The notes: a model not told the origin generated them from the sequence alone. Shown: positions 17,101-33,462, numbered from the stretch's first letter. The stretch is DNA of 64,000 bases from Candidatus Hydrogenedentota bacterium (GCA_035416745.1 DAOLNV010000002.1:111250-175249), one strand, 5' to 3'. Made by a program: numbers and translations.

Positions 17101-17434
17101 GCCCGCCGGTCTGCACGAAGCTGCCTACATCGTTTTTGACGCGTGGCTCCCCGAAGCTCAGCAGGCTGCCGTGCCGCTTCTGGTCATCCTCCGTGACAAT
17201 TCCGGAGTGGAATACATGGCGGACACGGGCATTCCCATGAATGCGCCGGGCCACCACGCGTGTTACGTGGCGTTGAACCGTTTCCGGCGGGCAGGATGGT
17301 GCCCCATAACGGACCGCCCGCTCGACCTGTCCAACATCTCGGCGATCAACATCGGTTGGGGGGGCTACTACGGTTCGGAGAACGAGAACGTGACATTCAG
17401 CCTGAGCCCGCCCCGGCTGGCTTCACACCCTTGA
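14171..17434 (+). CDS. Large secreted glycoside-hydrolase-like protein with an N-terminal GH2-type sugar-binding jelly-roll domain.
   Basis: The ATG at 14171 (MRIILRCVLVSAAFASLASAFA) is preceded by GGAGAAAAACGAG. The N-terminal region (DYDDSAWRSMNVPGAWE...YDGVAWYRLRFVVP...LELFLGTVDDEDRTYLNGTVVG) is a classic beta-galactosidase-type jelly roll. The 1074-aa ORF on the opposite strand is Arg-rich shadow. Confidence 0.75.
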   Translation: MRIILRCVLVSAAFASLASAFAEPAALENRRGNIEGLWRFRADPENTGEQEGFARLDYDDSAWRSMNVPGAWETQAEAANEPSIAAYDGVAWYRLRFVVPLEWREKDLELFLGTVDDEDRTYLNGTVVGETGPGVERAAVKLRRYTIPASCPRPGEQNVLAICVRDVGGPGGIVGPVLFLLPKDEVNQMMRLPQSDRPLEERFENPPADARILKIVHALPDAPDDQDRLFLSLISQGFGGIVTNVAFDEYMASDAKWEAFVRGVDAAKKLGMSLWLYDECGYPSGAAGGITLRDHPEYEASGLHVVDAPVDGGTCTLDVPKGVLFRAVAVPMKDGVASSQGAVDISSFVHDGKLVWEAPPGPWHAFVFTEDVLYEGTHAAVSLAYKLPYINLVPPEPTARFIEVTHAEYARRLGTDLGQYFVATFTDEPSLMSMFMTRQDRRVLPWADNAATEFQRRRGYALEPNLPALFVNMGPEGRRVRYDYWNTIGELVSESFFGQIQAWCQGHNILSGGHLLCEEAFLASIPLYGDSFRCMRRLDAPSIDCLTSIPDDVPWFVARLISSAAELEGRTVTMCETSDHAQRYRPKGDTRPVRVVTEEEIRGTCNRLILNGINTITSYYSFSGLTAGQMTRLNEWVGRCCTMVRGGHQVTDIALLHPIETAWVRFTPARHWVAESSVEAHRVERVFHDAENNLFRSRRDFTHVDSRTLTEAKAVDGALEFRELRWRIVILPDADTLPLAAWENLERFYQSGGVVVALTSMPANSETEFPSPRVLQIAGAMFGDSPKPHITTNGGGGAGIFLPPGAEALLPLVLDALLEPDVRVSAADAPLRIAHRRIDDNDVYFVINDSGQPWEGELDFSPTGGGAQWEPATGRMTAIEPGAGVPVRLDSYGAMLYTFKSAVPRPRKEVQAGDLPQVAVTALPETSPVPSHGEFVTASIETAPSLASADQTAWRVSGTITKGNVDTFVFAAFNYPAPAGLHEAAYIVFDAWLPEAQQAAVPLLVILRDNSGVEYMADTGIPMNAPGHHACYVALNRFRRAGWCPITDRPLDLSNISAINIGWGGYYGSENENVTFSLSPPRLASHP

Positions 17435-17525
17435 CGCAGATGAGCAGGATCTTCAGGGCCGGCGCGTCAACCTTTCTGTTATCCAGCTGGAATTCCTCTA
17501 GCAGTTTCTTTTCCTCTTTTGGGAG

Positions 17526-18524
17526 CTATTCGCCCAAACTGAACAAAGCCGCCACGGCCGCGAAGGAGGGCGAGGCTGGAAATTCGTCCGGGTACCGGTT
17601 GAACTGCACATGACCGTCCATATAAAGCGTGTTTGCTCCGCCGGGGATATGGTTGAACTGGGCGCTCGCCGACGTGGTTGCAGACACGATATCCCACATG
17701 ACCGGCATCATGCTTTGTGCCGTGGCCGACGAGGCAGGGTTGTTAATATCGGTGATCACGAACCGTTCAATCCCTTCCCTCAGCCTGTAGAGAGTTGTCC
17801 CGCCGCCATTTCCAAAAGGAACGCCCGGGGGCGTTGACATCGCTGAGAACATGCCATATACCGCTGCGTCGTCAAGATCCTTGTCCATCTGCGAATCGTT
17901 ATCGGGATTCTTGTCGCCCAAGGCGCCACTGAATGTCGGCGGGTAATACGACAGGCACGCCATCAGGTACGCCATCTGTGTGGAAACCAGTGCAGAAGGC
18001 ATGCCAAACGCACTCACATCAAAGCTGGGGTCCTTTTCCGAAACCTTGTCGAGCAGGAAACCGTAATAGAGATAGCTCGCATCGGACTTCGAAGGAAGAC
18101 CCCTATACTCTGGGCATGTTTGACCCGGTGCGTCTTCAACGATACCCAAAGGGTCCGCGCTACTGGCCTGCGGGTCGGAAGGACACACCAGAACGTTGAG
18201 GTCAGACAAGTACTCCGGGAAAATGGCGCGCATCTGGGGAGCCAGGTTGGCGCGCGTGCTTCCGTTCTGGCAAGTTACAGGCAAGGCGCTGCCCCATGGC
18301 TGGTCACCGTGAACTCGCGGGAAGAGTTCCCTGGACTCGCCAGCGTACATTTTGAATACTAGCCCCATTTGCTTGAGGTTGTTCGCGCAACTGGCCCGTC
18401 TCGCTGCTTCACGGGCACGGGCCAGAGCGGGCAACAGGATGGCCGCCAGGATACCGATGATGGCAATTACGACCAGCAGTTCAATCAGCGTGAATCCATG
18501 TCTTTTCATGATTGCGTCTTTCAT
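17526..18524 (-). CDS. DUF1559-family protein with a prepilin-type N-terminal cleavage/methylation domain (type II secretion pseudopilin-like, H-X9-DG family).
   Basis: The N-terminus [52 protein letters not shown] is typical. The C-terminal segment ...[14 protein letters not shown] matches the DUF1559 H-X9-DG signature. The GAAGGA RBS and ATG overlap the PadR stop (ATGA). Confidence 0.85.
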
Positions 18525-18973
18525 TTCGCGTTCCTTCTAATAGGCACACAACATGGGTGAATGATTTCTTGCCGGATTTCCTTGGATACGGGTTGCGGGC
18601 TGCGTTCGATGAAGGTCACCGTCTGTTCAAGGTTGCGCGAGTGAGCATCCAAGGTGTTCTTCCAACGTTGAAGGCAGTTCCAACCCTCTTCCGTCAACGC
18701 GTAAACGCGTTTAGCCGGGCTGCTGCCTTCCGTGTCCCAGTCCGACCTGAAATACCCCTCCTTCTCCATGGCCTTAAGAACCCGATCGAGGCCCATGGCA
18801 TCAGGCGGGCTATCGCTAATAATGGCTGCGTCCCGAAGATGCTGGGAGATCACATACGCATGCAGCCCGGCAGGCGCGCGAGCCAAAACAGCCATAACCG
18901 CCGGCCGGAGAAAATGATCGAGCGTGGCGCCGGAACAGGGGCAGTGACTCTGTTTCATTCTATTGGACCCCAT
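18521..18973 (-). CDS. PadR-family transcriptional regulator.
   Basis: [21 protein letters not shown]...[14 protein letters not shown] fits the PadR winged-helix consensus. Its stop overlaps the start of the downstream DUF1559 gene by 4 bp. Confidence 0.7.
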
Positions 18974-19425
18974 CGGCTATTCCACTTTGTTTAGTATATC
19001 CTGCCGGGCAGAGGGCTGCAAGGTTCTGACCCATGACGGCCATACTTGCCCCTCTGCATCTATGGTGACTGGGCTCATTTGCAGCGGCGTTGAACTCGAC
19101 CCCATGGGGCTTCATGGGTGGTGAATCCCGGAAGACATGGGCTGGAGAGCAGCGATTGACCAGGGGCTCGCTATCAAGTGCAGTGAGGGACGGAACACGA
19201 GGTCCAAGAAGATGGCTGTAACGGCGCAGTTTCCGCGTCTCAAGGACGGCATTTCCCGCACTATAAACAGAGAAGTTGAATAGATTTCGCTTCCGCGCAG
19301 GCGCCATTTCCTCCGCGTCCTTTGTGTGGGTTTGTCCAATCGCCGTGTTACCCGGATTGGGGCCAAATCTCAATTGAACGGCACGAGAGTTTCGGATAAA
19401 GTTCAGTGTCGGCACAACGGAGGGG

Positions 19426-20706
19426 GTGATGCAGAACGAAAAGCGCAGGCCGCTGGGCAGGATGTTGGAAGTCCTCGGGCCCGGCCTGTTCCTGATCGGC
19501 TATAACATCGGCACCGGCAGCGTGACGACGATGGCTTCGGCGGGTTCGCGCTGGGGGATGTCGTTGACCTGGACGGTGGTACTATCCTGCGTGTTCACCT
19601 ACGTTGGCATCCTCACGTTCGGCCGGTACACGCTCGTCACAGGAGACACGATCCTGTACGCCATCAAGCGAAGGCTTCCCTTTGGCAAGGGTATCAGCCT
19701 GTTTCTGCTTGCCGCCGTGACCATGGCCGAGTTCGCGGGCATCACAGGACTTATGGCCATCATCGTAGACCTTGTGCTTGAATGGATCCGGTTCGCGACC
19801 GGCTACTACAACGGCGCCATCAAATTTCTGGTTACTGGTATAGGCACCGGGCTGCTGTTCTGGGTGTTATGGCGAGGCGGCTACGCCTTTTTGGAAAAAC
19901 TGCTGTCCATATTGGTCGCGGTGATGGGGGTGTCTTTCGTTCTCACGGCGCTTCTGCTTGTACCGTCCTGGCGAGACATTCTGGTGGGCCTCGTGCCGCG
20001 TGTTCCCCAAGAGCCCGGCGCGTCACTGCTTGTGGCCGGGATGGCGGGCACCACGTTCAGCTCGGCCATCCTCTACTGCAGAAGCATCACTTTGAAGCAG
20101 AAAGGATGGAAAGCGGATGACGAGAAACGCTCCCGGACGGACGCGATTGTGTCCGTAGGCACGATGTTTATCCTGAGTATTGCCGTCATGATATGTGCGG
20201 CCGGCACGCTATATATTGCCCGTCAACCCGTCGAAGCCGCTGTTGACATGGTCAGAACAATTGAACCGTTGGCGGGACGGTTCGCGATCACGCTCTTCGT
20301 GGTGGGAATTATCGGGGCGGGGGTCTCCAGTCTCATTCCGACCATTCTGATTGGCCCGTGGCTGATCTCCGACTACACCAATAAGCCCCTCAATCCCCGG
20401 TCGACTTCGAGCAGGGTTCTCGTGTCGATTGGCAGTTTGATCGCGTTAGGCGCTCCGTACTTTCCCCCGACCATCGCCAAACCGGTATTCCTCATGATAC
20501 TTACGATGGCGCTTCTGGCGGTTATTCTGCCGTTTTCAACGATTGCCATAACCGTGCTTCTGAACCAGAAGAAGTATATGGGGGCGCGGGCCAACTCTGC
20601 CGTCATGAACGTAGCGTGCCTGGCCACCATCCTGTTTTCGATGGTGATGTCGTACTACGCCATCATCGGACTCTGGGAGTATGTCCAGACGAAGCTCCCC
20701 GCCTAG
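19426..20706 (+). CDS. NRAMP-fold (MntH-related) membrane transporter with non-canonical substrate-site residues.
   Basis: It has 10-12 predicted transmembrane helices. The N-terminal LGPGLFLIGYNIGTGS aligns with the MntH LGPGFLMSIAYIDPGN. The canonical D-P-G-N is replaced by G-T-G-S, and the TM6 MPH-type motif is absent. Confidence 0.8.
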   Translation: MMQNEKRRPLGRMLEVLGPGLFLIGYNIGTGSVTTMASAGSRWGMSLTWTVVLSCVFTYVGILTFGRYTLVTGDTILYAIKRRLPFGKGISLFLLAAVTMAEFAGITGLMAIIVDLVLEWIRFATGYYNGAIKFLVTGIGTGLLFWVLWRGGYAFLEKLLSILVAVMGVSFVLTALLLVPSWRDILVGLVPRVPQEPGASLLVAGMAGTTFSSAILYCRSITLKQKGWKADDEKRSRTDAIVSVGTMFILSIAVMICAAGTLYIARQPVEAAVDMVRTIEPLAGRFAITLFVVGIIGAGVSSLIPTILIGPWLISDYTNKPLNPRSTSSRVLVSIGSLIALGAPYFPPTIAKPVFLMILTMALLAVILPFSTIAITVLLNQKKYMGARANSAVMNVACLATILFSMVMSYYAIIGLWEYVQTKLPA

Positions 20707-21442
20707 AGCGACGGCTGGAAAGAGACCAAACGTCTGGAAGCGCCGGGGCACGGTGATGTTGAAATCGCGTAGCCGTCAGGATTGGCATCAAAGCATTGCG
20801 TGTCCGTCGCTGGATACTTATCCGCTAGGGACTTACCAGCCGGGATCTTCAGTCAAGGGGCGCATAATCCGGATCCGTTATCCGCTGGTTATCTTGACCA
20901 AAAGCCATGGACTCTCTTCCGCCGAGCAACGCCTGGGACTTCAGGGACTAAACCCCGTCCGTGGTGTGTTCTTGGGGTAATACCTCGTTTCGTGTGTCGA
21001 GCAGGGCGAAACAGACCGTAAGGATAAGACTTCGGGCCCGGGCGGGTCGGGAATGTCCGAAGACGTTGGGAATCTGCAATGAACAGGGCGAAAGCCAGAG
21101 AACATCCCAAGATTGCTTTGACCATGATTGCCGCCGCCATCCTTGGCGTACAGTCTTTTGGCGCAGCGGACACATCAACGTCCTTGGCCGTGGATATTGG
21201 GCTTGGACCAAAGTCCGGCGGCGAAGATTGGCATCAAATGGCGATCTGGGTCCAGTGTCTGGCGCGATTACGCGGGCACCAAGACAGCCGTTCTACTTCT
21301 TACTGCAGCAACCAGCCTGTCATTGAGTCGTTTCCGGCATGTCAAGCTGTTGAAGCTGGCGCACAAATACGGTGGCTTCGTGCTTGTCGTGATAGCGTTG
21401 ACGCGCGGAGTTCGCGCTTTGTTTTTCGCGGGAAATTGGGCC

Positions 21443-22120
21443 ATGACACGCACGACAAGGAATGAAACGGAATTCCCCGATGTCCTCCCGACCCGGGGGC
21501 GTGTATTGGCGAAAGCCGCAGCCGTGTATGATTGGGTTCAACCATTCGTCACGCTGGGCCAGGAAACCAAGTTGAACCATTGGGTGGCGGACAGTCTCGC
21601 GCTCGATGGGGAAGAGTATGTACTGGATATAGGCTGCGGCACGGGTTTGTTGACGGTTGCGATTGCGGAACGGTATCCGCGCGCAACCGTGGTGGGCATT
21701 GATGCTTCAAAACCGATGATTCGCGTGGCCAACCGCAAGCGGAGGCGCGACAACTGCAACTACCGCCAGGCGCTGGCCGAGGAATTGCCCTATGATGCGG
21801 AGACCTTCGATGCGGTCACATCAGCCCTTTTCTTTCACCACGTGGACCGTGAACTCAAAGTGCGTTGTTTGTGTGAAGTGTTGCGCGTCTTGAAACCGGG
21901 CGGCAGGCTCATCGTGGCGGACATGGATCGGCCGTACACGGCGCTTGGGCGGGCGATGTCGGTGGTCGCGTGGCGCCTGTTTCGGCAACCAGAGATCAAA
22001 GAAAACATGGATGGAATAATGAGGTCGCTTATTCCCGAAGCAGGATTTGTGGACATGGTTGAATTGGCTCGGTTTTCGGGGTACATCAGCGTCCTGTCCG
22101 CAAGGAAACCTCAGGTATGA
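21443..22120 (+). CDS. Class I SAM-dependent methyltransferase (UbiE/COQ5-like, Methyltransf_11 type).
   Basis: It has SAM-binding motif I (VLDIGCGTGLLT), post-I acidic (GIDAS), and motif II/III (FDAVTSALFFHHV...VLKPGGRLIV). The start could lie further upstream in the same frame (ORF from 21128). Its stop overlaps the next gene's ATG (ATGA). Confidence 0.75.
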   Translation: MTRTTRNETEFPDVLPTRGRVLAKAAAVYDWVQPFVTLGQETKLNHWVADSLALDGEEYVLDIGCGTGLLTVAIAERYPRATVVGIDASKPMIRVANRKRRRDNCNYRQALAEELPYDAETFDAVTSALFFHHVDRELKVRCLCEVLRVLKPGGRLIVADMDRPYTALGRAMSVVAWRLFRQPEIKENMDGIMRSLIPEAGFVDMVELARFSGYISVLSARKPQV

Positions 22121-23160
22121 AAGACGCACTACGTACGCTTGCGGGTTGCCCTGTGTGGGCAGAGAGCCTTGAAATCCAGCAGGAGACCGTGCGGGCCTTT
22201 CATCGTCGATGTGCGAGTATCCTTGGCGGCTCATGTGGTTTGAGGCCGCTGGAAGAACGGCTGCTCCTTCCGGAGCGCAATCTTTTCTCAACGCTGTTTA
22301 TAGCAGCGGCAAAGTCGTTGGGCTTGTCTGACGCCAAGGTCCGATTTTATGCGATGGTGAATCAGTGCATACGGGCGCTGGTAACCGGATGCGACAATCT
22401 GTTGGACGACGAATACAAGGAGGTCATTCCGTTCGATTTGCCAGGCGACGGAACCCGGTTTCGTTCCGTGCTTATGGTCATGACGGCTGACCGCGTGCTC
22501 TCGGAGCTGGCCGCCAAGATGATGCATGAAGGCCGGTTCTCGTTGGCTCAGGCGAATCGGCTCATGCGCACGGCAGTTCGGGTCTTAATGCCGAGCGGAC
22601 TCGAGGAGCACGAGGAAGAATCAGGGGCGGCAAGGACCGTACCGACACCCGAAGCCATATGTGACGATGTGCATTATCGCAAGACCGGCCTGCTGTTTGA
22701 AGCGCCTTTGTCTCTCATTGAGGAAATGGGCGACGCATACGCAGGGCAGACACGATGCGCAAGAGAGGCATTGAGCGGTCTCGGGCTGGCCTGCCAGGCG
22801 CTGGACGACATCAAGGATATCGCGCGGGATCTGCAACGAGGGCAACATAACGCCGTGGTTTCGTATGCTTATTACGGCGGATCGGAGGCGGAACGGGGCC
22901 TTCTGCTATCGTTCCTGCGGCCGGGCGCAGGCGCCCTGCCGTCCCCCGAACACGTCGCGGCCGGGTTGATTACCGCGCGCTCCAGGACATTTGCGCATGC
23001 CGCGCAGCTCTTCGATGAGGTGGAAACGATGCTGTGCACCGCCATCCCAGGTTTCGAAAAGGAGCACGCTGTTGCGTTGACCGGCGCCATCAGGGGAACG
23101 TTGGGATTTGACCCCGATCCCGTATGGCGCCATGCCGCCAAACAGGAGATTCTCGTGTGA
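22117..23160 (+). CDS. Squalene/phytoene synthase-family (SQS_PSY, head-to-head prenyl transferase-like) protein.
   Basis: The first Asp-rich segment is RFYAMVNQCIRALVTGCDNLLDDE (compare YAFCRxADDIVD). The second motif is GLACQALDDIKDIARDLQRGQ (compare GxAFQLTNILRDVxEDxxRGR). The isoprenoid-synthase fold pattern is all-helical. It is 347 aa. The family call is by motif only. Confidence 0.65.
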   Translation: MKDALRTLAGCPVWAESLEIQQETVRAFHRRCASILGGSCGLRPLEERLLLPERNLFSTLFIAAAKSLGLSDAKVRFYAMVNQCIRALVTGCDNLLDDEYKEVIPFDLPGDGTRFRSVLMVMTADRVLSELAAKMMHEGRFSLAQANRLMRTAVRVLMPSGLEEHEEESGAARTVPTPEAICDDVHYRKTGLLFEAPLSLIEEMGDAYAGQTRCAREALSGLGLACQALDDIKDIARDLQRGQHNAVVSYAYYGGSEAERGLLLSFLRPGAGALPSPEHVAAGLITARSRTFAHAAQLFDEVETMLCTAIPGFEKEHAVALTGAIRGTLGFDPDPVWRHAAKQEILV

Positions 23161-24341
23161 TGTTCTGGTTGCGGTTCGCGTTTCGTTCGTGTGTGCGGCG
23201 GCGCAAGAGGACGGGTATCACCCTGCTTGGGGTTGCGTTCGCCGTAGGCACGCTGGTGGTGCTCGGAGCGATCATGGTGGGCGTGAACGACACGATGATC
23301 GAAAATGCCGTGGCCATGCACGCGGGGCATGTAGCGAGCGTTGCGGGGCCCATGCCGATGCACGACGCGCTGGACCGCGCCCGGACACCCGAAGACCCGG
23401 CAGGAGACTTGGAATTGGCCGGCACTCTGCGCCGTTGCCGGTTCAGCGCAATGCTCAAAAGCGACCATGGAACACTACCCGCGACGATTTGGGCGGTCGA
23501 CCCGAAACGGGAAGCCCTGTTTACGCCCATTGAGCGCGCCATGGTGAACGGCCAGTATCTGGCAGCCCCCCTGGACCTTCTGATTGGAAAAGCGGCTGCA
23601 GAAGAGCTTTCCTTGAACGTAGGCGATTCGGTGCTCGTCACGACGCCGTCGGAGCAGTGGGAACGGCGTGTTGGCGGGATCTACAGTTCCGGCATTGGCG
23701 CCTTTGACCTCGGGGTCTCGTTCATGACGCTTGAGGCCGCATCCGAGTTGAATGAACCGCAGGTGTTCTTTGAAAAGGCGTACTTTCTGCTTCGGGGAGC
23801 CGACCCTGAAAATGTCCGCACCCGCCTGTCCGATGCTGCAGCAGCGGACGAGAAGTTGTCGACATGGCCGGAGCTCTTGCCGGAAGTGGCACAGTTAGTG
23901 GACCTGAACGCGTTTTCAATGAGCATCATGATTGCGCTTGTGGTGCTCATCTTGGGTTTTGGTGTTGCGAACGCGCTGCTGATCTCGGTAATGGATCGAT
24001 ACCGGCATTTCGCGGTCTTGAAGGCGATTGGAGTGCGTCCGAGCGAAGTGATTCGAATCGTCGTGTTCGAAGCGCTGCTGATGTGTCTGGCGGCCGGACT
24101 GCTCGGTACGGGGCTGGGCTGGGCGATTGGTACCGCATGGGGCCATGTGGGCCTCGATCTGTCGGCATACACTTCCTCCAATCCCCACTTCAGCGTGAAT
24201 CCGATCGTCTACCCGCGTGTCACACCCTTCATGACCTTTGCTCCTCAGGCACTTGCGCTGTGCGCCGCGGCCGGCGCAGCTATCTGGCCTGCCATAGTGG
24301 CGGCGCGAAGGCCCGTGAGCCATGCGATGAGGGACATATGA
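23160..24341 (+). CDS. ABC transporter permease of the FtsX/MacB/LolCE family.
   Basis: The N-terminal MFWLRFAFRSCVRRRKRTGITLLGVAFAVGTLVVLGAIMVG is a typical FtsX-family first TM. It has a large extracytoplasmic domain and three C-terminal TMs. There is a TGATG overlap with the upstream gene. Confidence 0.8.
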   Translation: MFWLRFAFRSCVRRRKRTGITLLGVAFAVGTLVVLGAIMVGVNDTMIENAVAMHAGHVASVAGPMPMHDALDRARTPEDPAGDLELAGTLRRCRFSAMLKSDHGTLPATIWAVDPKREALFTPIERAMVNGQYLAAPLDLLIGKAAAEELSLNVGDSVLVTTPSEQWERRVGGIYSSGIGAFDLGVSFMTLEAASELNEPQVFFEKAYFLLRGADPENVRTRLSDAAAADEKLSTWPELLPEVAQLVDLNAFSMSIMIALVVLILGFGVANALLISVMDRYRHFAVLKAIGVRPSEVIRIVVFEALLMCLAAGLLGTGLGWAIGTAWGHVGLDLSAYTSSNPHFSVNPIVYPRVTPFMTFAPQALALCAAAGAAIWPAIVAARRPVSHAMRDI

Positions 24342-25075
24342 CGCCGAACGCAGCCATATCGCTCGAGAATGTGACACGCCGTTTCCTGACGGGGGGACAG
24401 CCTTTCGCCGCGATAGACAATGTCTGTCTGGACGTGCGGCCTGGGCAACGGCTTGCGTTGGTAGGCCCGAGCGGTTCCGGCAAGACGACGCTGTTGAACC
24501 TGATGGGAGCGTTGGATCGTCCGGATAGCGGCACGGTTCATTGCCTGGGCATCGAGTTGTCTGGCATCTCCGAAAGAAAAACAGCTGCATTTCGGCGCGC
24601 GCGCCTGGGATTCATTTTTCAGCAAGATGCGCTCATGCCGGAACTCACCGTCCGAGAGAACGTCGAGCTGCCCCTGGTGCTGTTAAGGAAAGAGCCGGCC
24701 GCCCGAAGATCCAAGGTCGGCCTCCTGCTTGAATCGCTTGGTCTTGCCGAAAAGGCGGCCGAGCTTCCCGCCGTGCTTTCGGCGGGTGAGAAACAGCGGG
24801 TGGCCGTTGCGCGAGCGGTAGTACATGACCCGGATGTCCTCCTGGCAGATGAACCGACGGCCAACCTCGACGGAGCGACGGCTGGACGGGTCCTCGACAC
24901 CATCGAGGCATTGGCGGGCCAGAAGAGCTTGACCGTTGTCTTGGCAACGCACGACGCGCGGGTATTTGGCCGGTTCGAGGCGATTGCCCGGCTGGAAGAC
25001 GGCCGGTTGGTGGAAGTGCGCACGGCGAAGGCAACAGAGGAGATCCGGGCCGTGGGCCATGCAGAGCTTTTTTGA
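24338..25075 (+). CDS. ABC transporter ATP-binding protein (MacB/LolD-type).
   Basis: It has Walker A (GPSGSGKTT), a Q-loop, the ABC signature (LSAGEKQRVAVARA), Walker B (LLADEP) and an H-loop (ATHD). There is an ATGA overlap with the permease. Confidence 0.85.
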   Translation: MTPNAAISLENVTRRFLTGGQPFAAIDNVCLDVRPGQRLALVGPSGSGKTTLLNLMGALDRPDSGTVHCLGIELSGISERKTAAFRRARLGFIFQQDALMPELTVRENVELPLVLLRKEPAARRSKVGLLLESLGLAEKAAELPAVLSAGEKQRVAVARAVVHDPDVLLADEPTANLDGATAGRVLDTIEALAGQKSLTVVLATHDARVFGRFEAIARLEDGRLVEVRTAKATEEIRAVGHAELF

Positions 25076-25291
25076 TGGGGGCATTATCCTGACACGCCGC
25101 CTCTGCTTCGCAGTCGGGGCGTGCGATGCTCTCCTCAACGTGTCGCCGGGAGCCCTGGGACTGAAGATCGCGGTCAGTCTGCAACAAGACTCCTCCGGCC
25201 GTGACCTGGACCTCGATGACAATGAAATACCCGTATCTGATGTATTCAGCATTGCACATGGTCATCAGGAGCTCATTGAAGCCGCCGGCGT

Positions 25292-26842
25292 TCACTTCGG
25301 AGCAGGCCGCGCCCAGCGTTGCGGCGGCAGGTGGCGGAAGTCAATATCGAGCGTGTCATTGCGTTGCGGCGCGCCCGGCGTGCTGCGCCCTTCGTCCACG
25401 TAAGACTCGAGCAGCACGGTCAGGCGCTGTACAATATCCGGGTGCTGGCTGCTCACGTCTTCTGTTTCGGCGATATCGTTCGCGAAATCATACAGCTCAA
25501 ATTTGGGGTCGCCCTCCTTCTCGGAGAGAATGACCAGCTTCCAGGGACCTTGTCGAATCGCGAAGCCTCCTCGGACACTGTGGTGCACGAGGGCTTCACG
25601 CAACGGCCGCCTCGCTCGTCCGACAAACGCGGGCAACATGTTCACGCTGTCTTCGGCCGCGTTATCCGGCAGCTTTTCGCCGACAATCGCGGCGCACGTG
25701 GCCATCACGTCATTCAAGCTGATGAGCTGGCTGCACCGGGACCCGGCCTTCACCTTGCCCGGCCACCGGACGATGAAGGGCACTCGGTGGCCGCCTTCCC
25801 AGATTTCGCCTTTCCAACCGCGATAGGGGCCGCTGGGCCGATGACCGTGTTCTACCAGCAACTCCCAGCCGGTATAGTGCGAATGACCATTGTCCCCAGC
25901 GAATATCACGAGCGTGTTCTCCGCGACTCCGGCTTCACTCAACGCGTTTATGACTTGCCCCGCCGACCAGTCCGTCTCCATCAAGAAATCGGCGATTGGG
26001 GCGATGCCGCTCTTGCCCTTGAACTGCTCGGACGGCGAGATCGGTTCATGCGGCGACGTCATGGGGAAATAAAGAAAGAACGGCCTCTTGCTGGAGGCCT
26101 GCTCGTGAATGTAGCCCACCGCACGTTCGGTGAGGGCCGGTAAGATCCGATCGAAACGCCAGCCCGGGGCCATCGGCGCGTTGTCGAACCCGATATGAAT
26201 CGCGGGGTCTGGCTTGTTCTTGCCAGTCGGCTGCACCGTTACCCGGTCGTTCTCGATGAAGGCGAACGGGGGAAAATTCGGTACGTCCGTGCCGAAGTAG
26301 TAATCGAAGCCTCGAGTGGTGGGCCCCGACCCGATCGGCACGGTGAAATCGGCTTTCTTTGCGCGACCTTCCCCGTCGCCGGCCCAGTCCCAGCCAAGGT
26401 GCCACTTGCCGATGCACGCCGTATGATAGCCGTGAGTCCGGAGAAGTTGCGGCAGGGTTAAGCGGTCGGGTGCGATGAGCGGCGGCTCGTAGGCGTCAAG
26501 CACCCATTCCTGCAGCCGCGTCCGCCAACAGTAACGCCCTGTCAGCAAACCGTAGCGGCTGGGCGAACATACCGCTGAAGCGCTGTGCGCGTCGGTGAAG
26601 ACGACCCCCTCATGAACCAGACGATCAAGATTCGGCGTCGGGATTGGATTGCCGGGCGTAAGCGCCTGAATATCGCCCACCCCGAAGTCGTCCGCGATAA
26701 TTACTACGATATTTGGAGGAGGGCGCCTTTCCGTAACTGTCGTGCGGGTTGTTGTGCACGCCGCCGCGAACAGTGCCGGCGCCGCCGCAACAAATTGCCG
26801 GCGATTGATGAGACCCGAATCGGGTTTTCCGTGATTGTTCAT
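25292..26842 (-). CDS. Arylsulfatase-family sulfatase (formylglycine-dependent) with a TAT signal.
   Basis: It has the C-x-P-x-R motif (CSPSRYGLLTGRY), GKWHLG, and a twin-arginine signal (RRQFVAAAPALFAAA). The ATG at 26842 (MNNHGK) is preceded by GAGGGGGTGG. Confidence 0.85.
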   Translation of the reverse strand: MNNHGKPDSGLINRRQFVAAAPALFAAACTTTRTTVTERRPPPNIVVIIADDFGVGDIQALTPGNPIPTPNLDRLVHEGVVFTDAHSASAVCSPSRYGLLTGRYCWRTRLQEWVLDAYEPPLIAPDRLTLPQLLRTHGYHTACIGKWHLGWDWAGDGEGRAKKADFTVPIGSGPTTRGFDYYFGTDVPNFPPFAFIENDRVTVQPTGKNKPDPAIHIGFDNAPMAPGWRFDRILPALTERAVGYIHEQASSKRPFFLYFPMTSPHEPISPSEQFKGKSGIAPIADFLMETDWSAGQVINALSEAGVAENTLVIFAGDNGHSHYTGWELLVEHGHRPSGPYRGWKGEIWEGGHRVPFIVRWPGKVKAGSRCSQLISLNDVMATCAAIVGEKLPDNAAEDSVNMLPAFVGRARRPLREALVHHSVRGGFAIRQGPWKLVILSEKEGDPKFELYDFANDIAETEDVSSQHPDIVQRLTVLLESYVDEGRSTPGAPQRNDTLDIDFRHLPPQRWARPAPK

Positions 26843-27371
26843 AGGCCACCCCCTCGGCACACCCATGCTGGCACGGGCTTGATTTCGATGTCAATGGCGA
26901 TGGTTCGGAGTTATCCGTTTCCGTCACGACGGCCCGGAGCCCGGCCATGTCCTGGTTGTTTCGCGCGTCAGGCGGAATCGCATAATTAAATCGCCGGAAC
27001 CGAGCCTCCGAATCCAGGAGCCGCTTGCACTGCTAACGAAAGGCTGTATCGTGCCTTACGAGGATGGATACACCCTTGCATACGGTCCAGACCGTGGCCC
27101 CTCGAATCCGGAAAATCCTGACAGGAGTCTTGACTTTTGGGCTCTTGACTTCGGGTCAATTCCCGCGAAACTGGTGGCCAAGTAGTCATAAACCCTTGTT
27201 GTTGAATCGTGATGTGTTCTCGAAGACCATACGCGATATGAGATTCGTGATTGACGTTTGGGCCTCCGATCGGCACCATAGTAAGCGTGTGGGTACAGAT
27301 GAATGCTGGCCGGTTTATAGGGTAGACTTGCCGGAGTGATTTGAGGCGGTTCAGGGGAAGGGGTTTTATCC

Positions 27372-30300
27372 ATGAGATCGCGATTGTTGTCCACAGCGTG
27401 TGTCGCCGTCTTGAGCGTTGTCTGCGCGGCGATTTTTGTGGGGTGTCCAGCCGGCCAGAATGCGTCCGTGGCCCTGATTGTCTCTCCAACGTCTCTGGAT
27501 TTCGGCACTTCCGAAACGTCATTGACCTTCGAGGTGCGAAAGAATTACACCAGCGTTCCGCTGGGGCAGTTCCGGGTCTCGAGCGGCAATGCGTGGGTCG
27601 CCGTTTCTCCCGAGACCGGCACAAGTACCGGCCCCGACGATCCGGTCACCATCACGGTTACCCTTGACCGTAACCTCATGAATGTGGGCTCGAACACCGG
27701 CACAATCAATGTGACCGCCGAAGGGGTTTCCCGAGTGCAGGTGCTGGTCCAGGCCACGCGACAGCTAGGGGCATCCTTCTCCGTGAGCAGTAACACTGCT
27801 TTTACCGATGAGGAGCTGCAATTCACCGATCATTCGCAAGTTGTTGCTGACGCTCCGGCCATTGTCAGTTGGTTGTGGGAGTTCGGCGACGGCGCGTCCA
27901 GCACGGAGCAGAATCCCCGGCATGCATATGCATCCGAGGGCTCTTACGACGTCTCGCTTACCGTATCCAACGACAACGAGACTGCAATGCTGACAAGGCG
28001 CGGGTATGTCTTGGTGAGCGCCAAGCGCCCGCCGTCCGCCGAATTTGCTGCCGATCCGGTCAACACGTCTCCCGGCGTGAGCGTTCAGTTCACCAGTCTT
28101 TCGAGTCCGGGCACTAGTGCCATCACCTCTTACGCGTGGGATTTCGGCGACGGGGGGTCGAGCGCGGCCGAGAACCCCGTGCATGCTTACAGCAGTATCG
28201 GCACTTATAGTGTGTCTCTAACCGTTCAGACCGCACACGGCCAGGACACGGTGACCAAACAGAACTATATCACCGTTGAGCCGGTGGCCCCCGAAGCGGC
28301 GTTCTCCGCGGTGTCCCGCGAGCCGGTTCCGGGCCCTTCGGGTGCTGTTGTGGTTTTCCAAGACGAATCCATAGCGGGAACCTTCCCCATTGTCGAATGG
28401 TTCTGGGAGTTCGGCGACGGCTCGACGAGCACGGAAACCGACCCCCAGCACGCGTATCAGGAGCTGGGCGTCTTTACCGTATCCTTGACTGTCACGTCTG
28501 AAAACGGCCAGACGGACACGGAGACGAAAGAGAATTACATCACCGTTGTGCCGGTCCAGGTGCCTTCGGTGGAAGGTTTACCACAGGCGGCCGCGGAATC
28601 GGCGATCCGCGCGGCAGGCTTGGTGGTAGGCGCGGTGACACAGGCCCATAGCAGGACCGTGCCTCTGGGCAGTGTGATCAGTCAGGACCCGGCGGCGGGC
28701 ACCCTGGTGCGTCCGGGCAGCGCTGTGGCCCTTGTGGTATCGGCCGGGGTTTCGCCCGCGGATTTCAGCGCGGTCCGAACGCTGGGCGAACCGCCTCTGA
28801 CGGTTTCTTTCCAGACCCTTTCCGAAAACCCGGATACGCCCATAAGGTCGTGGTTGTGGAACTTCGGCGACGGCACGTCAGGCACAGACCAGTATCCTGT
28901 GCACGTGTACACCAGACCCGGTGGCTATACTGTGTCATTGACGGTCGCCACGGCGGCGGGCACATTCACGGCTGTGAGGGAGGGCTATGTTCAAGTGGCG
29001 AATGCCGACACCCCGGCTACGGGGGCGATAGACCTCACGAACGCCGTGTTGGCCTTGAACCCGGGACCGCTGCAGACAGCGGAAGACAAAGCCGCTGCAG
29101 CACTTGTGGAGGAGGTCCAGTCGCGGACGGGGCTGCTCTGGCCGGCTGTTGACACCTGGCCGGATTCGGGCACGGTCATTGCCCTGACGGCCCAACCGGA
29201 ACACCCCGCGCTGTCTGCCGAGGGATATCACCTCTTTGTGGAGGCGCGCACAACGGGTCCTACGGTAGTCTGGGCCATTGGCGCGGACCCGCGCGGCGTG
29301 TTGTATGGCGTGGGTAAGCTGCTGCGCAGCCTGGATTGGACCACGGGCGCTGCCACGCTTCCGGCCGCGCCCAATATCACCACTGCGCCCGCATTCCCAC
29401 TGCGGGGACATCAAATTGGGTACCGCAACACGGCCAACAGCTACGACGCATGGGATGTAGCGCGGTATGAGCAGTACATCCGCGAATTGGTGCTATTCGG
29501 GGCAAATGCCATCGAGAATATCCCGTTCGAGCCCGCGGACAACAGCGTCCATTTCTCCATTCCTCCCGCGGAGATGGCGGCTTCCCTGAGCCAGCTATGC
29601 CAGGACTACGACATCGAGTATTGGGTATGGACCCCGGCCGATTTTGACTTGCAGGACCCGGTGCAGCGCGCCGCGGGTTTGGCCGAGCAGGAGCAACTGT
29701 ATAAGGACTGCGTGCGTATCGACGGCGTGTTTGTGCCGGGCGGCGATCCGGGCTCAAACTCCCCGGACTTGGTGATGGCCTTCTTGGAAGACCTGGCCGA
29801 ACTGTTGCATGAAGGCCACCCGGATGCGGGCGTCTGGGTCTCGAACCAGGGGTTCGAGCATGCGCAGAATGACTGGTTCTTCAACTACCTCGATAGGGAG
29901 CGGCCCGATTGGCTTGCGGGAGTGGTGTTCGGCCCATGGACCAAACATTCGCTGGCTGAGCAGAGGATGCGCACGCCAGCCCAGTATCCCATCCGGCACT
30001 ATCCCGACATCTGCCACAATGTCCGCTGTCAATACCCGGTGGACCAGTGGGACGAGGCGCTTGCACACACATTGAACCGCGAGGCGCCCAACCCGCGCCC
30101 GGCTGAATTTGCCCATGTCCACAACTGGACCGCACCCGATACGACGGGGTTCCTGAGCTATTCGGATGGGATAACCGACGATGTGAACAAGATTGTATGG
30201 ACCATGCGAGGATGGGACCCGGCGATCTCCGTCGAGGAGATCCTGACCGATTATGCGCGGTTCTTCTTTGGTCCTGAGGCGGCGGATACCGCTGTTGACG

Positions 30301-31313
30301 GCATCTTGGGACTCGAGAACAACTGGGTCGGCACCCTGGCGGATAACACTGGGGTGGACGACACGTGGACACTTTGGAGCCAGCTCGAGTCCGCCCACCC
30401 GGAACTCGAGGAGAACTGGCGCTGGCAACTGCTGCTTCTCAGGGCATACTACGACCGGTATATCCGCGCACGGCTTACGAATGAAACCGCGCTTGAGGAG
30501 AACGCGTACGGGGCCTTGGCCACAGGCGGCAGCGTGGGCGCCAACGCGGCCATGGACAGCGCGGCAGCTTTCCTTGCCCAGCCGGACACCGCGCCGGTTC
30601 AGGCCGCTCTGCGCACCCGCATCGAAGACCTGTGTGAGGCTCTGTTCGAGTCGATCGGGCTACAGACAAGCGTTTCCTCCCCGTACGTTGCCGCGGGGCT
30701 GGAGCGGGGCGCCATACTGGACACCGTGGACTGGCCCGTGAACAACCGCTGGTGGCTTGAGAACCGTTTCGCCGCCATACGCGCCCTTGCTACGGAGCAA
30801 GAGAAACTGGCTGCAATAAACGTGATTCTGAACTGGGAGAATCCTGGAGCAGGCGGGTATTACGACGACTTGGGGAACGCGGCGAAGCAACCGCACCTGG
30901 TCCAGCAGCTTCCTTGGGCTGAGGACCCTGGCCGCGTCAGTTCCACCCAGAACGAGTTTGCGTGGCACGGCGGCGATTCGAGCGACCCGCAAAAGGGCGG
31001 CGGCAGGCTCTCCTGGCAATCCAGCGCAACCACGCTGTTTAACACGCCTCTCGAGGTGGAATACACAGGATTGGACACCAGCGCGGGATACATCCTGCGA
31101 GTGCTGTACGCGGGCCGGTTCCGGCCGTCAATGACGTTGACAGCCAACCAAGGCTATCTGGTTCACCCTGCCCTTGAGCAACCACCCCAGCCCACCGTGC
31201 TCGAATACGCGTTGCCCAAGGCGGTGACCGCAAGTGGCACACTGCGGCTCCGGTGGGACCTGGTGAGCGGGCGGGGCTGTCAGGTGGCGGAGCTCTGGCT
31301 TGTGAAGGAGTGA
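27372..31313 (+). CDS. Large lipoprotein/secreted protein with about 4 PKD repeats, one PASTA domain and a C-terminal glycoside-hydrolase-like module (GH20b-like subdomain + TIM barrel, GH20/67/115-like).
   Basis: It has a lipobox signal (...IFVGC). Four PKD repeats match at both DNA and protein level (WxFGDG...HxY...G.Y.V.LTV). The PASTA-like segment is VPSVEGLPQAAAESAIRAAGLVVGAVTQAHSRTVPLGSVISQDPAAGTLVRPGSAVALVVSAG. The GH20b-like segment is GADPRGVLYGVGKLLRSL. It is 1313 aa. Confidence 0.8.
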   Translation: MRSRLLSTACVAVLSVVCAAIFVGCPAGQNASVALIVSPTSLDFGTSETSLTFEVRKNYTSVPLGQFRVSSGNAWVAVSPETGTSTGPDDPVTITVTLDRNLMNVGSNTGTINVTAEGVSRVQVLVQATRQLGASFSVSSNTAFTDEELQFTDHSQVVADAPAIVSWLWEFGDGASSTEQNPRHAYASEGSYDVSLTVSNDNETAMLTRRGYVLVSAKRPPSAEFAADPVNTSPGVSVQFTSLSSPGTSAITSYAWDFGDGGSSAAENPVHAYSSIGTYSVSLTVQTAHGQDTVTKQNYITVEPVAPEAAFSAVSREPVPGPSGAVVVFQDESIAGTFPIVEWFWEFGDGSTSTETDPQHAYQELGVFTVSLTVTSENGQTDTETKENYITVVPVQVPSVEGLPQAAAESAIRAAGLVVGAVTQAHSRTVPLGSVISQDPAAGTLVRPGSAVALVVSAGVSPADFSAVRTLGEPPLTVSFQTLSENPDTPIRSWLWNFGDGTSGTDQYPVHVYTRPGGYTVSLTVATAAGTFTAVREGYVQVANADTPATGAIDLTNAVLALNPGPLQTAEDKAAAALVEEVQSRTGLLWPAVDTWPDSGTVIALTAQPEHPALSAEGYHLFVEARTTGPTVVWAIGADPRGVLYGVGKLLRSLDWTTGAATLPAAPNITTAPAFPLRGHQIGYRNTANSYDAWDVARYEQYIRELVLFGANAIENIPFEPADNSVHFSIPPAEMAASLSQLCQDYDIEYWVWTPADFDLQDPVQRAAGLAEQEQLYKDCVRIDGVFVPGGDPGSNSPDLVMAFLEDLAELLHEGHPDAGVWVSNQGFEHAQNDWFFNYLDRERPDWLAGVVFGPWTKHSLAEQRMRTPAQYPIRHYPDICHNVRCQYPVDQWDEALAHTLNREAPNPRPAEFAHVHNWTAPDTTGFLSYSDGITDDVNKIVWTMRGWDPAISVEEILTDYARFFFGPEAADTAVDGILGLENNWVGTLADNTGVDDTWTLWSQLESAHPELEENWRWQLLLLRAYYDRYIRARLTNETALEENAYGALATGGSVGANAAMDSAAAFLAQPDTAPVQAALRTRIEDLCEALFESIGLQTSVSSPYVAAGLERGAILDTVDWPVNNRWWLENRFAAIRALATEQEKLAAINVILNWENPGAGGYYDDLGNAAKQPHLVQQLPWAEDPGRVSSTQNEFAWHGGDSSDPQKGGGRLSWQSSATTLFNTPLEVEYTGLDTSAGYILRVLYAGRFRPSMTLTANQGYLVHPALEQPPQPTVLEYALPKAVTASGTLRLRWDLVSGRGCQVAELWLVKE

Positions 31314-33395: not shown

Positions 33396-33423
33396 GCCGC
33401 CGGAATCAGAAGACGCAAAGAGG

Positions 33424-33462
33424 CGAACCGTGCATTTCGGTGCATGGTTCGCTTCCTTTTTG
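33424..33462 (+). terminator. Putative Rho-independent terminator: a hairpin with a UUCG tetraloop followed by a T-run.
   Basis: CGAACCGTGCAT-TTCG-GTGCATGGTTCG is a ~10-bp interrupted stem with a TTCG loop, at 33424-33451. It is followed by CTTCCTTTTTG and lies 29 nt after the stop of the lipase-like gene. Confidence 0.4.

Follow-up and report, generated by a model that had tools for sequence, protein, structure and literature searches.

What might four overlapping genes for a methyltransferase, an isoprenoid-type enzyme and a two-part ABC machine do together? The question is raised by a locus in a 64,000-nt stretch of Candidatus Hydrogenedentota DNA (hereafter the window), whose features are listed in Table 1. 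An earlier note on this DNA had described four genes overlapping at every junction, and this is exact at all three: ATGA at 22117-22120 (gene 1/gene 2), TGATG at 23158-23162 (gene 2/gene 3; TGA and ATG have one base in common) and ATGA at 24338-24341 (gene 3/gene 4). Shine-Dalgarno-like purine runs (AAGGAAA, AGGAG and GAGGGA) precede the three internal starts, and because AGGAG stands before 23160 we favored this permease start over an alternative ATG at 23124. The four genes probably form one translationally coupled operon, as had been proposed, with the overlapping junctions themselves borne out. The framing of the source as a PVC genome has to be given up: it is Candidatus Hydrogenedentes/Hydrogenedentota, and no PVC genome.

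Table 1. Positions of genes, motifs and gene remnants, counted from the first nucleotide of the window
Feature	Position (nt)	Strand	Remark
Remnant of DUF2271-like periplasmic protein	21118..21264	+	N-terminal ~48 codons; tblastn
Remnant of small His-rich membrane protein	21260..21436	+	C-terminal 59 codons; tblastn
Gene 1, methyltransferase	21443-22120	+	225 aa ORF
SAM motif I, LDIGCGTG	21623-21646	+	gene 1
Gene 2, polyprenyl synthase-like	22117-23160	+	347 aa ORF
First Asp-rich motif (altered), CDNLLDDEYK	22390-22419	+	gene 2; DNLLDDE = aa 93-99, nt 22393-22413
Acidic helix, SGLEEHEEE	22594-22620	+	gene 2
KTG motif	22681-22689	+	gene 2
Second Asp-rich motif, DDIKDIARD	22804-22830	+	gene 2; DDIKD = aa 230-234, nt 22804-22818
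Gene 3, FtsX/MacB permease	23160-24341	+	393 aa ORF
Gene 4, ABC ATPase	24338-25075	+	245 aa ORF
Walker A, GPSGSGKT	24464-24487	+	gene 4; read from translation

The arrangement is not peculiar to the window. Relatives of gene 2 are present in 172 species genomes, and the module as a whole is found in about 170 bacterial species, mostly anaerobic; cultured carriers are Malonomonas rubra DSM 5091 and Desulfospira joergensenii DSM 10085. Among 80 loci fetched from other genomes, 48 have the order methyltransferase, polyprenyl synthase-like gene, FtsX permease, ATPase, and three have the first two genes exchanged, so the gene order is conserved, where its absence would have told against the earlier note. 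In nearly all of 47 cassettes the junctions are overlapping or within 15 nt; the closest link is that between the methyltransferase gene and gene 2, which overlap by 4 nt in 23 of the 47. The pairwise-identity matrices of the four proteins correlate with each other (r = 0.90-0.96). The recurrent order, tight junctions and correlated matrices together place the arrangement beyond chance, and the cassette is a conserved, self-contained four-gene module. Two-component regulators are found near it in some loci. Literature searches turned up no published description of the cassette or of this gene combination, in agreement with the earlier note, which had named no such pathway; methyltransferase, polyprenyl and FtsX genes are likewise absent from the text of a survey of flavinylation (PMC8238504).

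Gene 2 had been called squalene/phytoene-synthase-like. In profile searches, its product has no match to PF00494 (SQS_PSY) even at E <= 1, and 2 of 25 members of the gene 2 family reach an E-value of about 1e-3 (best 9.6e-4). PF00348 (polyprenyl_synt) is matched by all 25 members at E <= 1 (best 5.5e-10), with the product of the window itself at 22.7 bits (Pfam cut-off 27). A search of PDB profiles with gene 2 returned polyprenyl synthases only, and the predicted fold is not nearest to the SQS, CrtM or HpnC structures. A better match to polyprenyl synthases is the very outcome that the earlier note had named as speaking against its assignment, and, with neither a profile match nor the fold in its favor, we reject membership of the PF00494 family (SQS/PSY, including NDUFAF6). 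Profile-profile alignment (hhalign) of the gene 2 family with IspB, HepT and IspA is full-length (303 columns, probability 97.9%, E-value 2.4e-12). The product is 100% identical to a database entry named 'class 1 isoprenoid biosynthesis enzyme' (Candidatus Hydrogenedentes bacterium), and its family is discrete, with 143 clusters at E <= 1e-30 among 1.84 billion representatives. Gene 2 therefore encodes a divergent, soluble, all-alpha class I isoprenoid enzyme with the trans-prenyltransferase fold, whose presumed chemistry is considered below.

The two Asp-rich motifs noticed earlier are indeed present, but they are those of the polyprenyl synthase family rather than of the SQS/PSY family. The second motif and the KT motif are kept: C226-Q227-x-L-D230-D231-x-x-D234 and K189-T190-G191 vary little or not at all, and in the hhalign alignment CQxLDDxxD falls on FQxxDDxxD of the canonical synthases and K189 on the lysine of KT. 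The first motif is altered. Its D93/N94/D97 align with DDxxD, and the segment D93-N94-L-L-D97-D98-E-Y-K101-E-V retains the first and last Asp with an invariant Asn for the second; the canonical DDx(2-4)D followed by RRG is not found, the RRG position being K-E-V. Judging from this substitution, metal binding could be altered. Residues D93, N94, D97, D98, E99, K101, E164, E167, K189, Q227, D230, D238 and N245 are invariant in the family, and D231 and D234 are at least 90-95% conserved.

The basic residues of the canonical enzymes fare differently. The position of GGKRxRP (GGKRIRP) is occupied by a non-conserved G-S-C-G-L-x-P (GSCGLRP in the window), without a conserved Lys or Arg across the family; the 11-residue LGK loop that follows the second motif is missing, and the lysine of GK-x-T aligns to a variable position. 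The roles of the GGKRxR and Lys residues in binding IPP are established from structural work on FPPS. Because the conserved Lys and Arg that hold IPP are lost, gene 2 is presumed not to elongate chains and to use another acceptor than IPP or to form an irregular product; as far as its residues tell, chain elongation with IPP is doubtful. As compared to the trans-polyprenyl diphosphate synthases (IspB, HepT, solanesyl/nonaprenyl/decaprenyl-PP synthases, FPPS/GGPPS), gene 2 shares only 11-20% identity, reads DNxxDD for DDxxD, lacks or does not conserve the basic residues of GGKRxR, RRG and LGK...GKxT, has an ERNLFSTLF insertion of its own, and carries an invariant SGxEExEEE helix where they have GQxxD/GExxQ.

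Gene 1 is a UbiE-like class I methyltransferase, as first described: it is above cut-off for Pfam Methyltransf_11/25 (93 bits) and Ubie_methyltran (64.4 bits, cut-off 20.1), the latter over the N-terminal, family-specific part of the model. It stays below all NCBIfam equivalog cut-offs, including every UbiE/MenG model; the best single match is the uncharacterized CpaM/MM_2633 type (CpaM, 104 bits), followed by the quinone methylases MenG/UbiE (MenG_MenH_UbiE; 82 bits, cut-off 158), MpqE and UbiG. By comparison with the PDB it is generic. Across 52 cassettes, 43 positions are at least 95% conserved. The class I SAM fold is shared with the UbiE/MenG quinone C-methyltransferases, from which an invariant FFHH (aa 130-133) sets the methyltransferase of the cassette apart.

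The MacB/LolCDE-type permease and ATPase were likewise recognized correctly. The permease matches FtsX (58 bits) and MacB_PCD (33 bits) above the Pfam cut-offs, and hydropathy gives four TM segments (aa 17-47, 243-280, 294-324 and 363-383) with a periplasmic domain of ~195 aa between the first and second. The ATPase matches ABC_tran (120 bits), has 40 positions at least 95% conserved, and, besides Walker A, its translation reads LSAGEKQR (signature), LLADEP (Walker B) and ATHD (H-loop). A 4-TM FtsX permease with a MacB_PCD domain and an ATPase with intact Walker A/B, signature and H-loop make genes 3 and 4 a type VII (MacB/LolC-like) ABC machine, a class whose 'mechanotransmission' mechanism has been reviewed (PMC5985334). 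LolCDE proper (lipoprotein release) is not a match, since the scores for NCBIfam lolCE (67 bits, cut-off 362) and LolD (197 bits, cut-off 308) are below the equivalog cut-offs, and no LolA-like partner is encoded near the cassette. Nor is it a tripartite MacAB-TolC pump: no MacA-like membrane-fusion adaptor is encoded in the flanks in the window or among the conserved neighbors at 80 loci. Without any such adaptor, lipidated or hydrophobic ligands are pulled out of the membrane by LolCDE and HrtAB (PMC5985334). The cassette thus shares the 4-TM FtsX permease, the periplasmic MacB_PCD and a separate LolD/MacB-like ATPase with LolCDE, MacB, HrtAB and DevCA, and differs from them in scoring far below the MacB and DevC equivalog cut-offs as well, in a single permease gene (presumably for a homodimer), in the lack of a MacA/DevB adaptor gene nearby, and in the constant linkage to methyltransferase and polyprenyl synthase-like genes.

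In other lineages, periplasmic redox carriers are joined to the cassette. Directly after the ATPase gene, about 30 loci encode a lipobox protein of ~80 aa with two CxxCH motifs (a diheme lipoprotein). Hydrogenedentota, Spirochaetia and Planctomycetaceae have, on the flanks of the cassette, secreted DUF2271 or FMN_bind-like proteins that carry D-x-x-[ST]GA[ST] motifs. No redox protein adjoins the cassette in about half of the loci, among them the window and those of the Desulfuromonadales clade. In related Hydrogenedentota, a six-gene operon begins with an intact DUF2271-like gene; the intact homologue at locus L084 matches PF10029 (DUF2271) with 29.0 bits (cut-off 27.3) and has a DGMTGAT motif of the [S/T]GA[S/T] flavinylation type (PMC8238504).

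In the window, two remnants precede gene 1. By tblastn, the first corresponds to aa 1-48 of the 219-aa protein of L084 (41% identity, E-value 9e-7) and the second to aa 79-137 of its 137-aa protein (68% identity, E-value 1e-15), a small His-rich membrane protein that has 137-152 aa when intact. The second remnant is in frame with the methyltransferase start without an intervening stop, and the ORF starting at 21128 has one hydrophobic segment. About 0.8 kb is missing as compared to L084 and L004, and the 737-bp spacing from Nramp to the methyltransferase gene is identical in 8 independent contigs. Both redox-partner genes are deleted in the window genome, which keeps only the four-gene core intact. 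Related cassettes resemble flavinylated extracytosolic electron-transfer systems (DUF2271 with PepSY-like; Listeria flavin-based EET) in sharing operons with a DUF2271 [S/T]GA[S/T] protein and a small membrane protein, or in having FMN_bind-like secreted proteins beside them; one spirochaete locus adds MenA-like, HepT-like and NDH-2-like genes, a combination resembling DmkA/DmkB/Ndh2/PplA of Light et al. 2018. They differ in that no ApbE gene is found in the stretches fetched around cassettes, the small membrane protein matches no PepSY model, and the partner genes in the window are deleted remnants.

We tentatively propose that the module makes a small methylated prenyl lipid that is handled on the periplasmic side of the inner membrane. 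Gene 2 would bind an allylic prenyl diphosphate via Mg2+ (predicted ligands D93/D97 and D230/D231/D234, perhaps with E164/E167/E168 of the acidic helix peculiar to the family) and would transfer the prenyl chain to a non-IPP acceptor, or form an irregular product, without chain elongation. The UbiE-like methyltransferase would methylate the acceptor or the product, and the FtsX permease and ATPase may, like LolCDE/HrtAB, take the lipid out of the outer leaflet or hand it on to a partner in the periplasm or outer membrane. MacB-type pumps are not known to move substrates across the inner membrane, and a lipid made in the cytoplasm would need other means of flipping. Since periplasmic heme and flavin carriers are joined to the cassette in other lineages, we take it as most likely that the product is redox-related (quinone-like), or else that iron reduction or extracytosolic electron transfer depends on it. 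Of the sequence of synthesis, methylation and extraction or export of an isoprenoid suggested earlier, the prenyl, methylated and envelope parts are kept in this proposal, and the C30/C40 head-to-head product is not.

Tailoring of a quinone is an unlikely alternative. Gene 2 would then be a true, if divergent, polyprenyl-diphosphate synthase providing a special side chain; the methyltransferase would be a C-methylase of (demethyl)menaquinone of the MenG/UbiE type, and the ABC pair would insert the quinone into the outer leaflet or remove it from there. The Ubie_methyltran match, the quinone methylases following CpaM, the periplasmic redox partners in many loci and the top fold matches of gene 2, which are long-chain synthases, all fit. 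In one spirochaete locus (L003/L023), a MenA-like gene overlaps the methyltransferase start, beside a HepT-like synthase and an NDH-2-like flavoprotein. However, MenA adjacency is confined to this single genome, where the canonical HepT-like synthase makes a second side-chain synthase redundant, and both the methyltransferase scores and the unconserved IPP-binding residues of gene 2 argue against it.

Quite unlikely is a non-canonical (homo)terpenoid, for which the methyltransferase would C-methylate IPP, GPP or FPP, the class I enzyme convert the methylated diphosphate, as in the biosynthesis of 2-methylisoborneol, sodorifen or longestin, and the pump export the product. The known route to such terpenoids runs through paired methyltransferases and class I isoprenoid enzymes (PMC10881772), and these two genes are the tightest pair of the cassette.

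We consider it improbable that the product of gene 2 is a pseudo-enzyme that, comparable to the small non-catalytic subunits of heteromeric prenyl synthases, serves the ABC transporter or the methyltransferase by binding a ligand or by regulation, in a pump module for detoxification or envelope maintenance. The DN for DD in its first motif, the loss of several canonical basic residues and the regulators near some loci could be so explained, and its fold matches include non-catalytic subunits (GGPPS recruiting protein, GPPS small subunit, HepPPS component 1). However, at least 30 positions are invariant across phyla, among them the lysine of KT, the catalytic-type Gln of xQxxDD and every predicted metal ligand, a pattern typical of an active site, and in known non-catalytic prenyl synthase subunits the Asp-rich motifs are gone.

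Very unlikely is a ComQ/Ord1-like reaction in which a peptide or indole-type small molecule is prenylated, then methylated, and exported to serve as a signal or antibiotic. Ord1/XiaM, ComQ and MoeN5, which use non-IPP acceptors, keep a canonical first motif and have a degenerate 'pseudo' second one, the reverse of the gene 2 family. In the clade of the window, no small ORF is conserved at up to 700 bp from the cassette (among small genes, only that for the diheme lipoprotein, in a distant clade, was found to be conserved), and no protease, leader-type, indole, peptide or phosphoglycolipid pathway genes are found near it. The head-to-head synthase with a C30/C40 product that is methylated and exported, and its NDUFAF6-like non-catalytic variant, are contradicted already by the PF00494 and PF00348 results and are dropped together with the squalene/phytoene assignment on which both depended, leaving them hardly any probability.

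For the methylated prenyl lipid that we prefer, the methyltransferase varies. A PEMT-like membrane methyltransferase (PF04191) adjoins the polyprenyl synthase-like gene in 11 loci, and at L017, L028 and L073 the searches picked up no soluble enzyme next to it; a membrane PEMT/ICMT-like enzyme joins or replaces the soluble one in some genomes, and the PF04191 neighbor is a hint of a lipid product.

The 347-residue product of the second gene of the cassette (gene 2) was read in the earlier note as a squalene/phytoene synthase, an identity that did not survive comparison with Pfam: the window protein has no match to PF00494 at any threshold, and its sole Pfam match is to PF00348 (polyprenyl_synt; aa 179-238, 22.7 bits, below the 27-bit cut-off). 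All 25 aligned family members match PF00348 (best E-value 5.5e-10) and only two touch PF00494 (E-value about 1e-3); longer members (P0063, P0083, P0119, P0200 and others) match PF00348 only and carry no informative domain fusion. Searched against all PDB sequences, a profile of the gene-2 family retrieved only head-to-tail synthases (polyprenyl, FPP and GGPP; best E-value 4.6e-7). Global profile-profile alignment of gene 2 with E. coli IspB, IspA and a HepT-like synthase spanned 303 columns (probability 97.9%, E-value 2.4e-12), full coverage needing this three-sequence canonical profile and global mode, as hhalign against a single canonical synthase covered the C-terminal half only. AlphaFold2, given the family alignment, returned a confident model (mean pLDDT 93.5, pTM 0.91). 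A better match to polyprenyl synthases, seen here in the Pfam, PDB and profile-profile results, is what the earlier note had said would count against its assignment.

The signature of gene 2 was derived from the family alignment and an alignment of 52 cassettes. Invariant or nearly invariant residues are found in a block ERNLFSTLF (N55, F57, S58, F61), at R86 and then in VTGCDNLLDDEYK (D93, N94, D97, D98, E99, K101), in SGxEExEEE (S160, G161, E164, E167, E168), in KTGxLF (K189) and in GxxCQxLDDxxDxxxD (Q227, D230, D231, D234, D238), followed by N245 and S249. Compared with canonical synthases, D93-N94-x-x-D97 aligns with DDxxD of the first Asp-rich motif (in the AlphaFold2 model it lies at the C-terminal end of the corresponding helix), K189 with the KT lysine, and CQxLDDxxD with FQxxDDxxD. 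By contrast, the canonical GGKRxRP aligns with G-S-C-G-L-x-P, where no basic residue is conserved in the gene-2 family, RRG has become K-E-V, the 11-residue LGK-bearing loop after the second motif is deleted (in two separate alignments), the position aligned with the Lys of GK-x-T is variable, and GQxxD/GExxQ is replaced by an acidic helix. Structural work on FPP synthases has established that the Asp motifs and the KT lysine bind the allylic diphosphate via Mg2+, and that the diphosphate of IPP is held by the very Lys/Arg residues that gene 2 lacks. Since the latter are lost and the former kept, we infer from the alignments that gene 2 would still ionise or activate an allylic prenyl diphosphate, without condensing it with IPP. 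Known non-elongating prenyltransferases of the same fold show a motif pattern inverted relative to that of the gene-2 family.

The other three assignments of the earlier note were borne out by Pfam. The first gene encodes a class I SAM methyltransferase (MT; Methyltransf_11/25 93 bits; Ubie_methyltran 64 bits, cut-off 20), whose matches in the PDB are generic and identify no substrate; the third encodes an FtsX permease (FtsX 58 bits, MacB periplasmic core domain 33 bits) and the fourth an ABC ATPase (120 bits). By hydropathy the permease is laid out like a classical MacB/LolC protein, TM1 (aa 17-47) being followed by a periplasmic domain of ~195 residues and then by TM2-4, and the Walker A, signature, Walker B and H-loop motifs read from the translated ATPase are all intact. 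Type VII ABC machines of this kind act at the periplasmic side, and their substrates are not carried across the membrane (PMC5985334). The four genes are co-directional and overlap exactly as described before, at ATGA 22117-22120, TGATG 23158-23162 and ATGA 24338-24341, with purine-rich Shine-Dalgarno-like runs preceding all three internal starts. For the permease, the start at 23160 is favoured over another in-frame ATG upstream at 23124 because an AGGAG run lies nine bases 5' of it, and homologous permeases start at the equivalent position. A scan of window 20600-25400 for promoter and terminator consensus sequences returned nothing exceeding shuffled expectation.

Gene 2 matches, at 100% identity, a Candidatus Hydrogenedentes MAG protein annotated as 'class 1 isoprenoid biosynthesis enzyme', and the identical protein occurs on 20 contigs; local gene order was the same at all eight places examined among them (JGI, ENA and Logan samples). 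Among 1.84 billion representatives, an exhaustive HMM search found 143 clusters at E-value <= 1e-30 and only 616 at E-value <= 1e-3; the family is small, rare and discrete, well separated from the huge canonical synthase family. Relatives were found in 172 of about 185,000 species genomes (one genome per species), mostly of Desulfobacterota (Desulfuromonadales, Desulfobacterales, Desulfobulbales, Geobacter), the other carriers being Hydrogenedentota, Planctomycetota, Spirochaetia, NC10, one FCB-group bacterium and one gammaproteobacterium. Conservation of the neighbourhood, proposed earlier as a check, was found: of 80 homologous loci fetched from other genomes (L-numbers below), 48 have MT, gene 2, FtsX and ABC genes in the order of the window, three have gene 2 ahead of the MT gene with FtsX and ABC following, four have no soluble methyltransferase, and most of the remainder are cut by contig ends. 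Junctions overlap or are <=15 nt apart in nearly all of 47 cassettes, and pairwise identities of the four proteins, compared as matrices, correlate at r = 0.90-0.96; the four genes behave like a single inherited unit, and neighbours beyond them vary among loci.

Several further genes adjoin this unit in particular lineages. In 11 loci (including L007, L010, L017, L028, L039, L047, L066 and L073) a membrane PEMT/ICMT-type methyltransferase gene (PF04191, 38 bits) lies next to the gene-2 homolog, and beside it no soluble UbiE-like methyltransferase was detected in L017, L028 and L073, which suggests that the methyl acceptor is membrane-resident. A putative diheme c-type lipoprotein of ~80 residues is encoded immediately 3' of the ATPase gene in ~30 loci of the Desulfobacterota clade, its start lying on the ATPase stop codon or only a few bases from it, often with an overlap; it combines a signal peptide and lipobox Cys with two CxxCH haem-binding motifs, its matches to multihaem cytochrome families in Pfam are weak, and the window lacks the gene. 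In the Hydrogenedentota loci L002/L005 and L004/L084, two genes precede the MT gene within the same operon. The first encodes a DUF2271 protein with a D-x-x-[ST]GAT motif (L084: 29.0 bits, cut-off 27.3); DUF2271 has been shown experimentally to be a substrate of ApbE flavinylation at [S/T]GA[S/T] and belongs to proposed transmembrane electron-transfer systems (PMC8238504). The second encodes a His-rich membrane protein of 137-152 residues with no recognisable family; no Pfam match is significant (Ferric_reduct E-value 0.28 and DUF4405 E-value 1.4 are noise), so neither a PepSY-like nor a cytochrome b label is applied to it.

A secreted protein of 174-177 residues with DAVSGAT or DALTGAT and a weak FMN_bind match is encoded next to the ATPase gene in Spirochaetia and one Planctomycetaceae MAG. 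In the spirochaete locus L003 (= L023; 2306-11418), the cassette is embedded among genes for a HepT-like polyprenyl synthase, an NDH-2-like flavoprotein of 712 residues, a nitroreductase, secreted proteins (one of 251 aa with DAVSGAS, one FMN_bind-like of 174 aa with DAVSGAT) and a MenA-like DHNA prenyltransferase, whose gene overlaps the start of MT. It looks like a flavin- and quinone-based extracytosolic electron-transfer locus, and with its MenA-like, HepT-like and NDH-2-like genes it resembles the flavin-based extracellular electron-transfer locus of Listeria. Checked at every locus, MenA adjacency proved confined to this single genome, and MenA is therefore taken as a lead only and not as a general partner. 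Beside the cassette, different phyla (Desulfobacterota, Hydrogenedentota, Spirochaetia and Planctomycetota) have recruited periplasmic one- or two-electron carriers of three unrelated kinds; roughly half of the loci, Desulfuromonadales among them, have no such carrier.

In the window, the 737-bp gap between the Nramp and MT genes holds remnants of two pseudogenes, listed with the other features in the table. Relative to the related Hydrogenedentota loci L084/L004 and L002/L005, about 0.8 kb is deleted, and the deletion fuses both remnants, mutually out of frame. An assembly artefact was rejected because eight independent assemblies have the same spacing. Remnants and deletion beside an intact core (identical gene 2 on 20 contigs) mean that this lineage has kept the core and lost the redox partners beside it. 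From the membrane-protein remnant the reading frame runs without a stop into the MT ATG at 21443, which gives rise to an ORF of 330 codons from TTG at 21128 into MT and to the differing MT lengths chosen by gene callers on other contigs (305, 225 or 204 aa); an N-terminally extended, membrane-tethered MT may be made from it. The Rfam scan of the whole window found no RNA family at gathering thresholds, so the gap contains no riboswitch. A functional partnership of the DUF2271 remnant with Nramp in iron uptake was rejected as the primary link, because the intact pair in L002/L005 and L004/L084 lies in the cassette operon without any Nramp gene; nor is Nramp conserved as a cassette neighbour in other genomes.

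Features of the cassette, its upstream region and an accessory gene (window positions unless a locus is named)
Feature	Position	Strand	Basis or placement
MT ORF	21443-22120	+	reading frame, Pfam
Gene 2 ORF	22117-23160	+	reading frame
FtsX permease ORF	23160-24341	+	reading frame, Pfam
ABC ATPase ORF	24338-25075	+	reading frame, Pfam
PadR-family regulator, divergent from Nramp divalent-metal transporter	18521-20706	- (PadR), + (Nramp)	directly 5' of remnants
DUF2271-like remnant, first ~48 residues	21118-21264	+	homology to related Hydrogenedentota
Small His-rich membrane-protein remnant, last 59 residues	21260-21436	+	68% identity to L084
Putative diheme lipoprotein gene (examples, range L025-L079)	L042 10707-10946; L051 2767-3018		3' of ATPase gene

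Starting from what was directly observed (what the four proteins are and how they are built, an altered active-site signature in gene 2, a conserved module and the accessory genes associated with it), we propose that gene 2 would take a prenyl group from its allylic diphosphate and attach it to an acceptor other than IPP, or else make an irregular product, that the UbiE-like MT would methylate this compound, and that the MacB/LolCDE-like machine would draw the methylated lipid out of the outer leaflet or pass it on. Because periplasmic haem and flavin partners recur, our best guess at the physiology is that the product is redox-active and quinone-like, or that the cassette serves iron reduction or extracytosolic electron transfer. 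This combined picture of prenyl transfer, methylation, periplasmic-side handling and a redox-linked role is held tentatively, at somewhat short of an even chance. The repeated joining of three unrelated kinds of periplasmic redox protein to the cassette points towards a function in electron transfer, periplasmic or extracellular, which matters ecologically in sediments and digesters. That the cassette makes a new methylated prenyl redox lipid or cofactor, delivered periplasmically to small cytochromes or flavinylated proteins, is an unlikely extension; if true, anaerobes would possess a new route by which to reduce iron or move electrons outside the cytosol.

Among the alternatives, dedicated synthesis and methylation of a menaquinone side chain is unlikely but carries some weight: the best named relatives of MT, CpaM aside, are quinone methylases, every score being below its cut-off. 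A 'homoterpenoid' route via a methylated prenyl diphosphate, as in 2-methylisoborneol and longestin (review PMC10881772), would also pair a methyltransferase with gene 2, and we consider it distinctly unlikely. Gene 2 as a pseudo-enzyme accessory to the pump would accord with the lost Lys/Arg residues and is, with the Asp motifs and KT lysine kept, improbable. Peptide prenylation of the ComQ type is more improbable still, as no precursor gene was found: among conserved ORFs of 20-110 aa within 700 bp of the cassette at all loci, the window's clade has no ComX-like precursor, and the sole recurrent small gene is that of the diheme lipoprotein, in a distant clade. The original head-to-head (squalene/phytoene-type) model, set against the polyprenyl synthase matches, has next to no chance.

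The earlier note knew of no described pathway with this gene combination, and our literature searches likewise found no relevant description; a systematic survey of flavinylation-associated clusters makes no mention of methyltransferase, polyprenyl or FtsX genes (PMC8238504). All components come from known superfamilies, whereas their combination and the enzyme subfamily are uncharacterised. Under the unlikely redox-lipid extension, gene 2 would represent a new catalytic class of the polyprenyl-synthase fold (DNxxDD and EExEEE helix, no IPP site). Once worked out, the reaction of gene 2 would enlarge the known chemistry of the class I isoprenoid fold, and a MacB/LolCDE-type machine for an endogenous small lipid would lengthen the short list of natural substrates of type VII ABC transporters. 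The interest lies in this distinct catalytic subfamily, in the possible endogenous lipid substrate and in a testable electron-transfer link in anaerobes: cultured carriers exist (Malonomonas rubra, Desulfospira joergensenii and Desulforhopalus), so the function of the cassette can be tested directly.

The surroundings in the window (12237-18524 and 25292-43669) are glycan-degradation and secretion genes, encoding a 1116-aa GH106/GH2-like protein, a sulfatase, a 1313-aa PKD/PASTA/BACON protein, GH42-like, GH2 and GH123-like enzymes, a T2SSE ATPase and a DUF1559 protein with a prepilin-type N-terminus (pseudopilin). The window ORFs scanned included no further gene for isoprenoid, quinone or cytochrome functions, and the cassette is not within a larger isoprenoid cluster. 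Many long antisense ORFs on the minus strand overlap the four genes at 21320-25295 (e.g. 22872-23468, 23916-24590 and 24645-25295; longest 224 aa); they are coding-strand shadows in G+C-rich DNA, which is also why clusters of antisense ORFs are seen across other loci.
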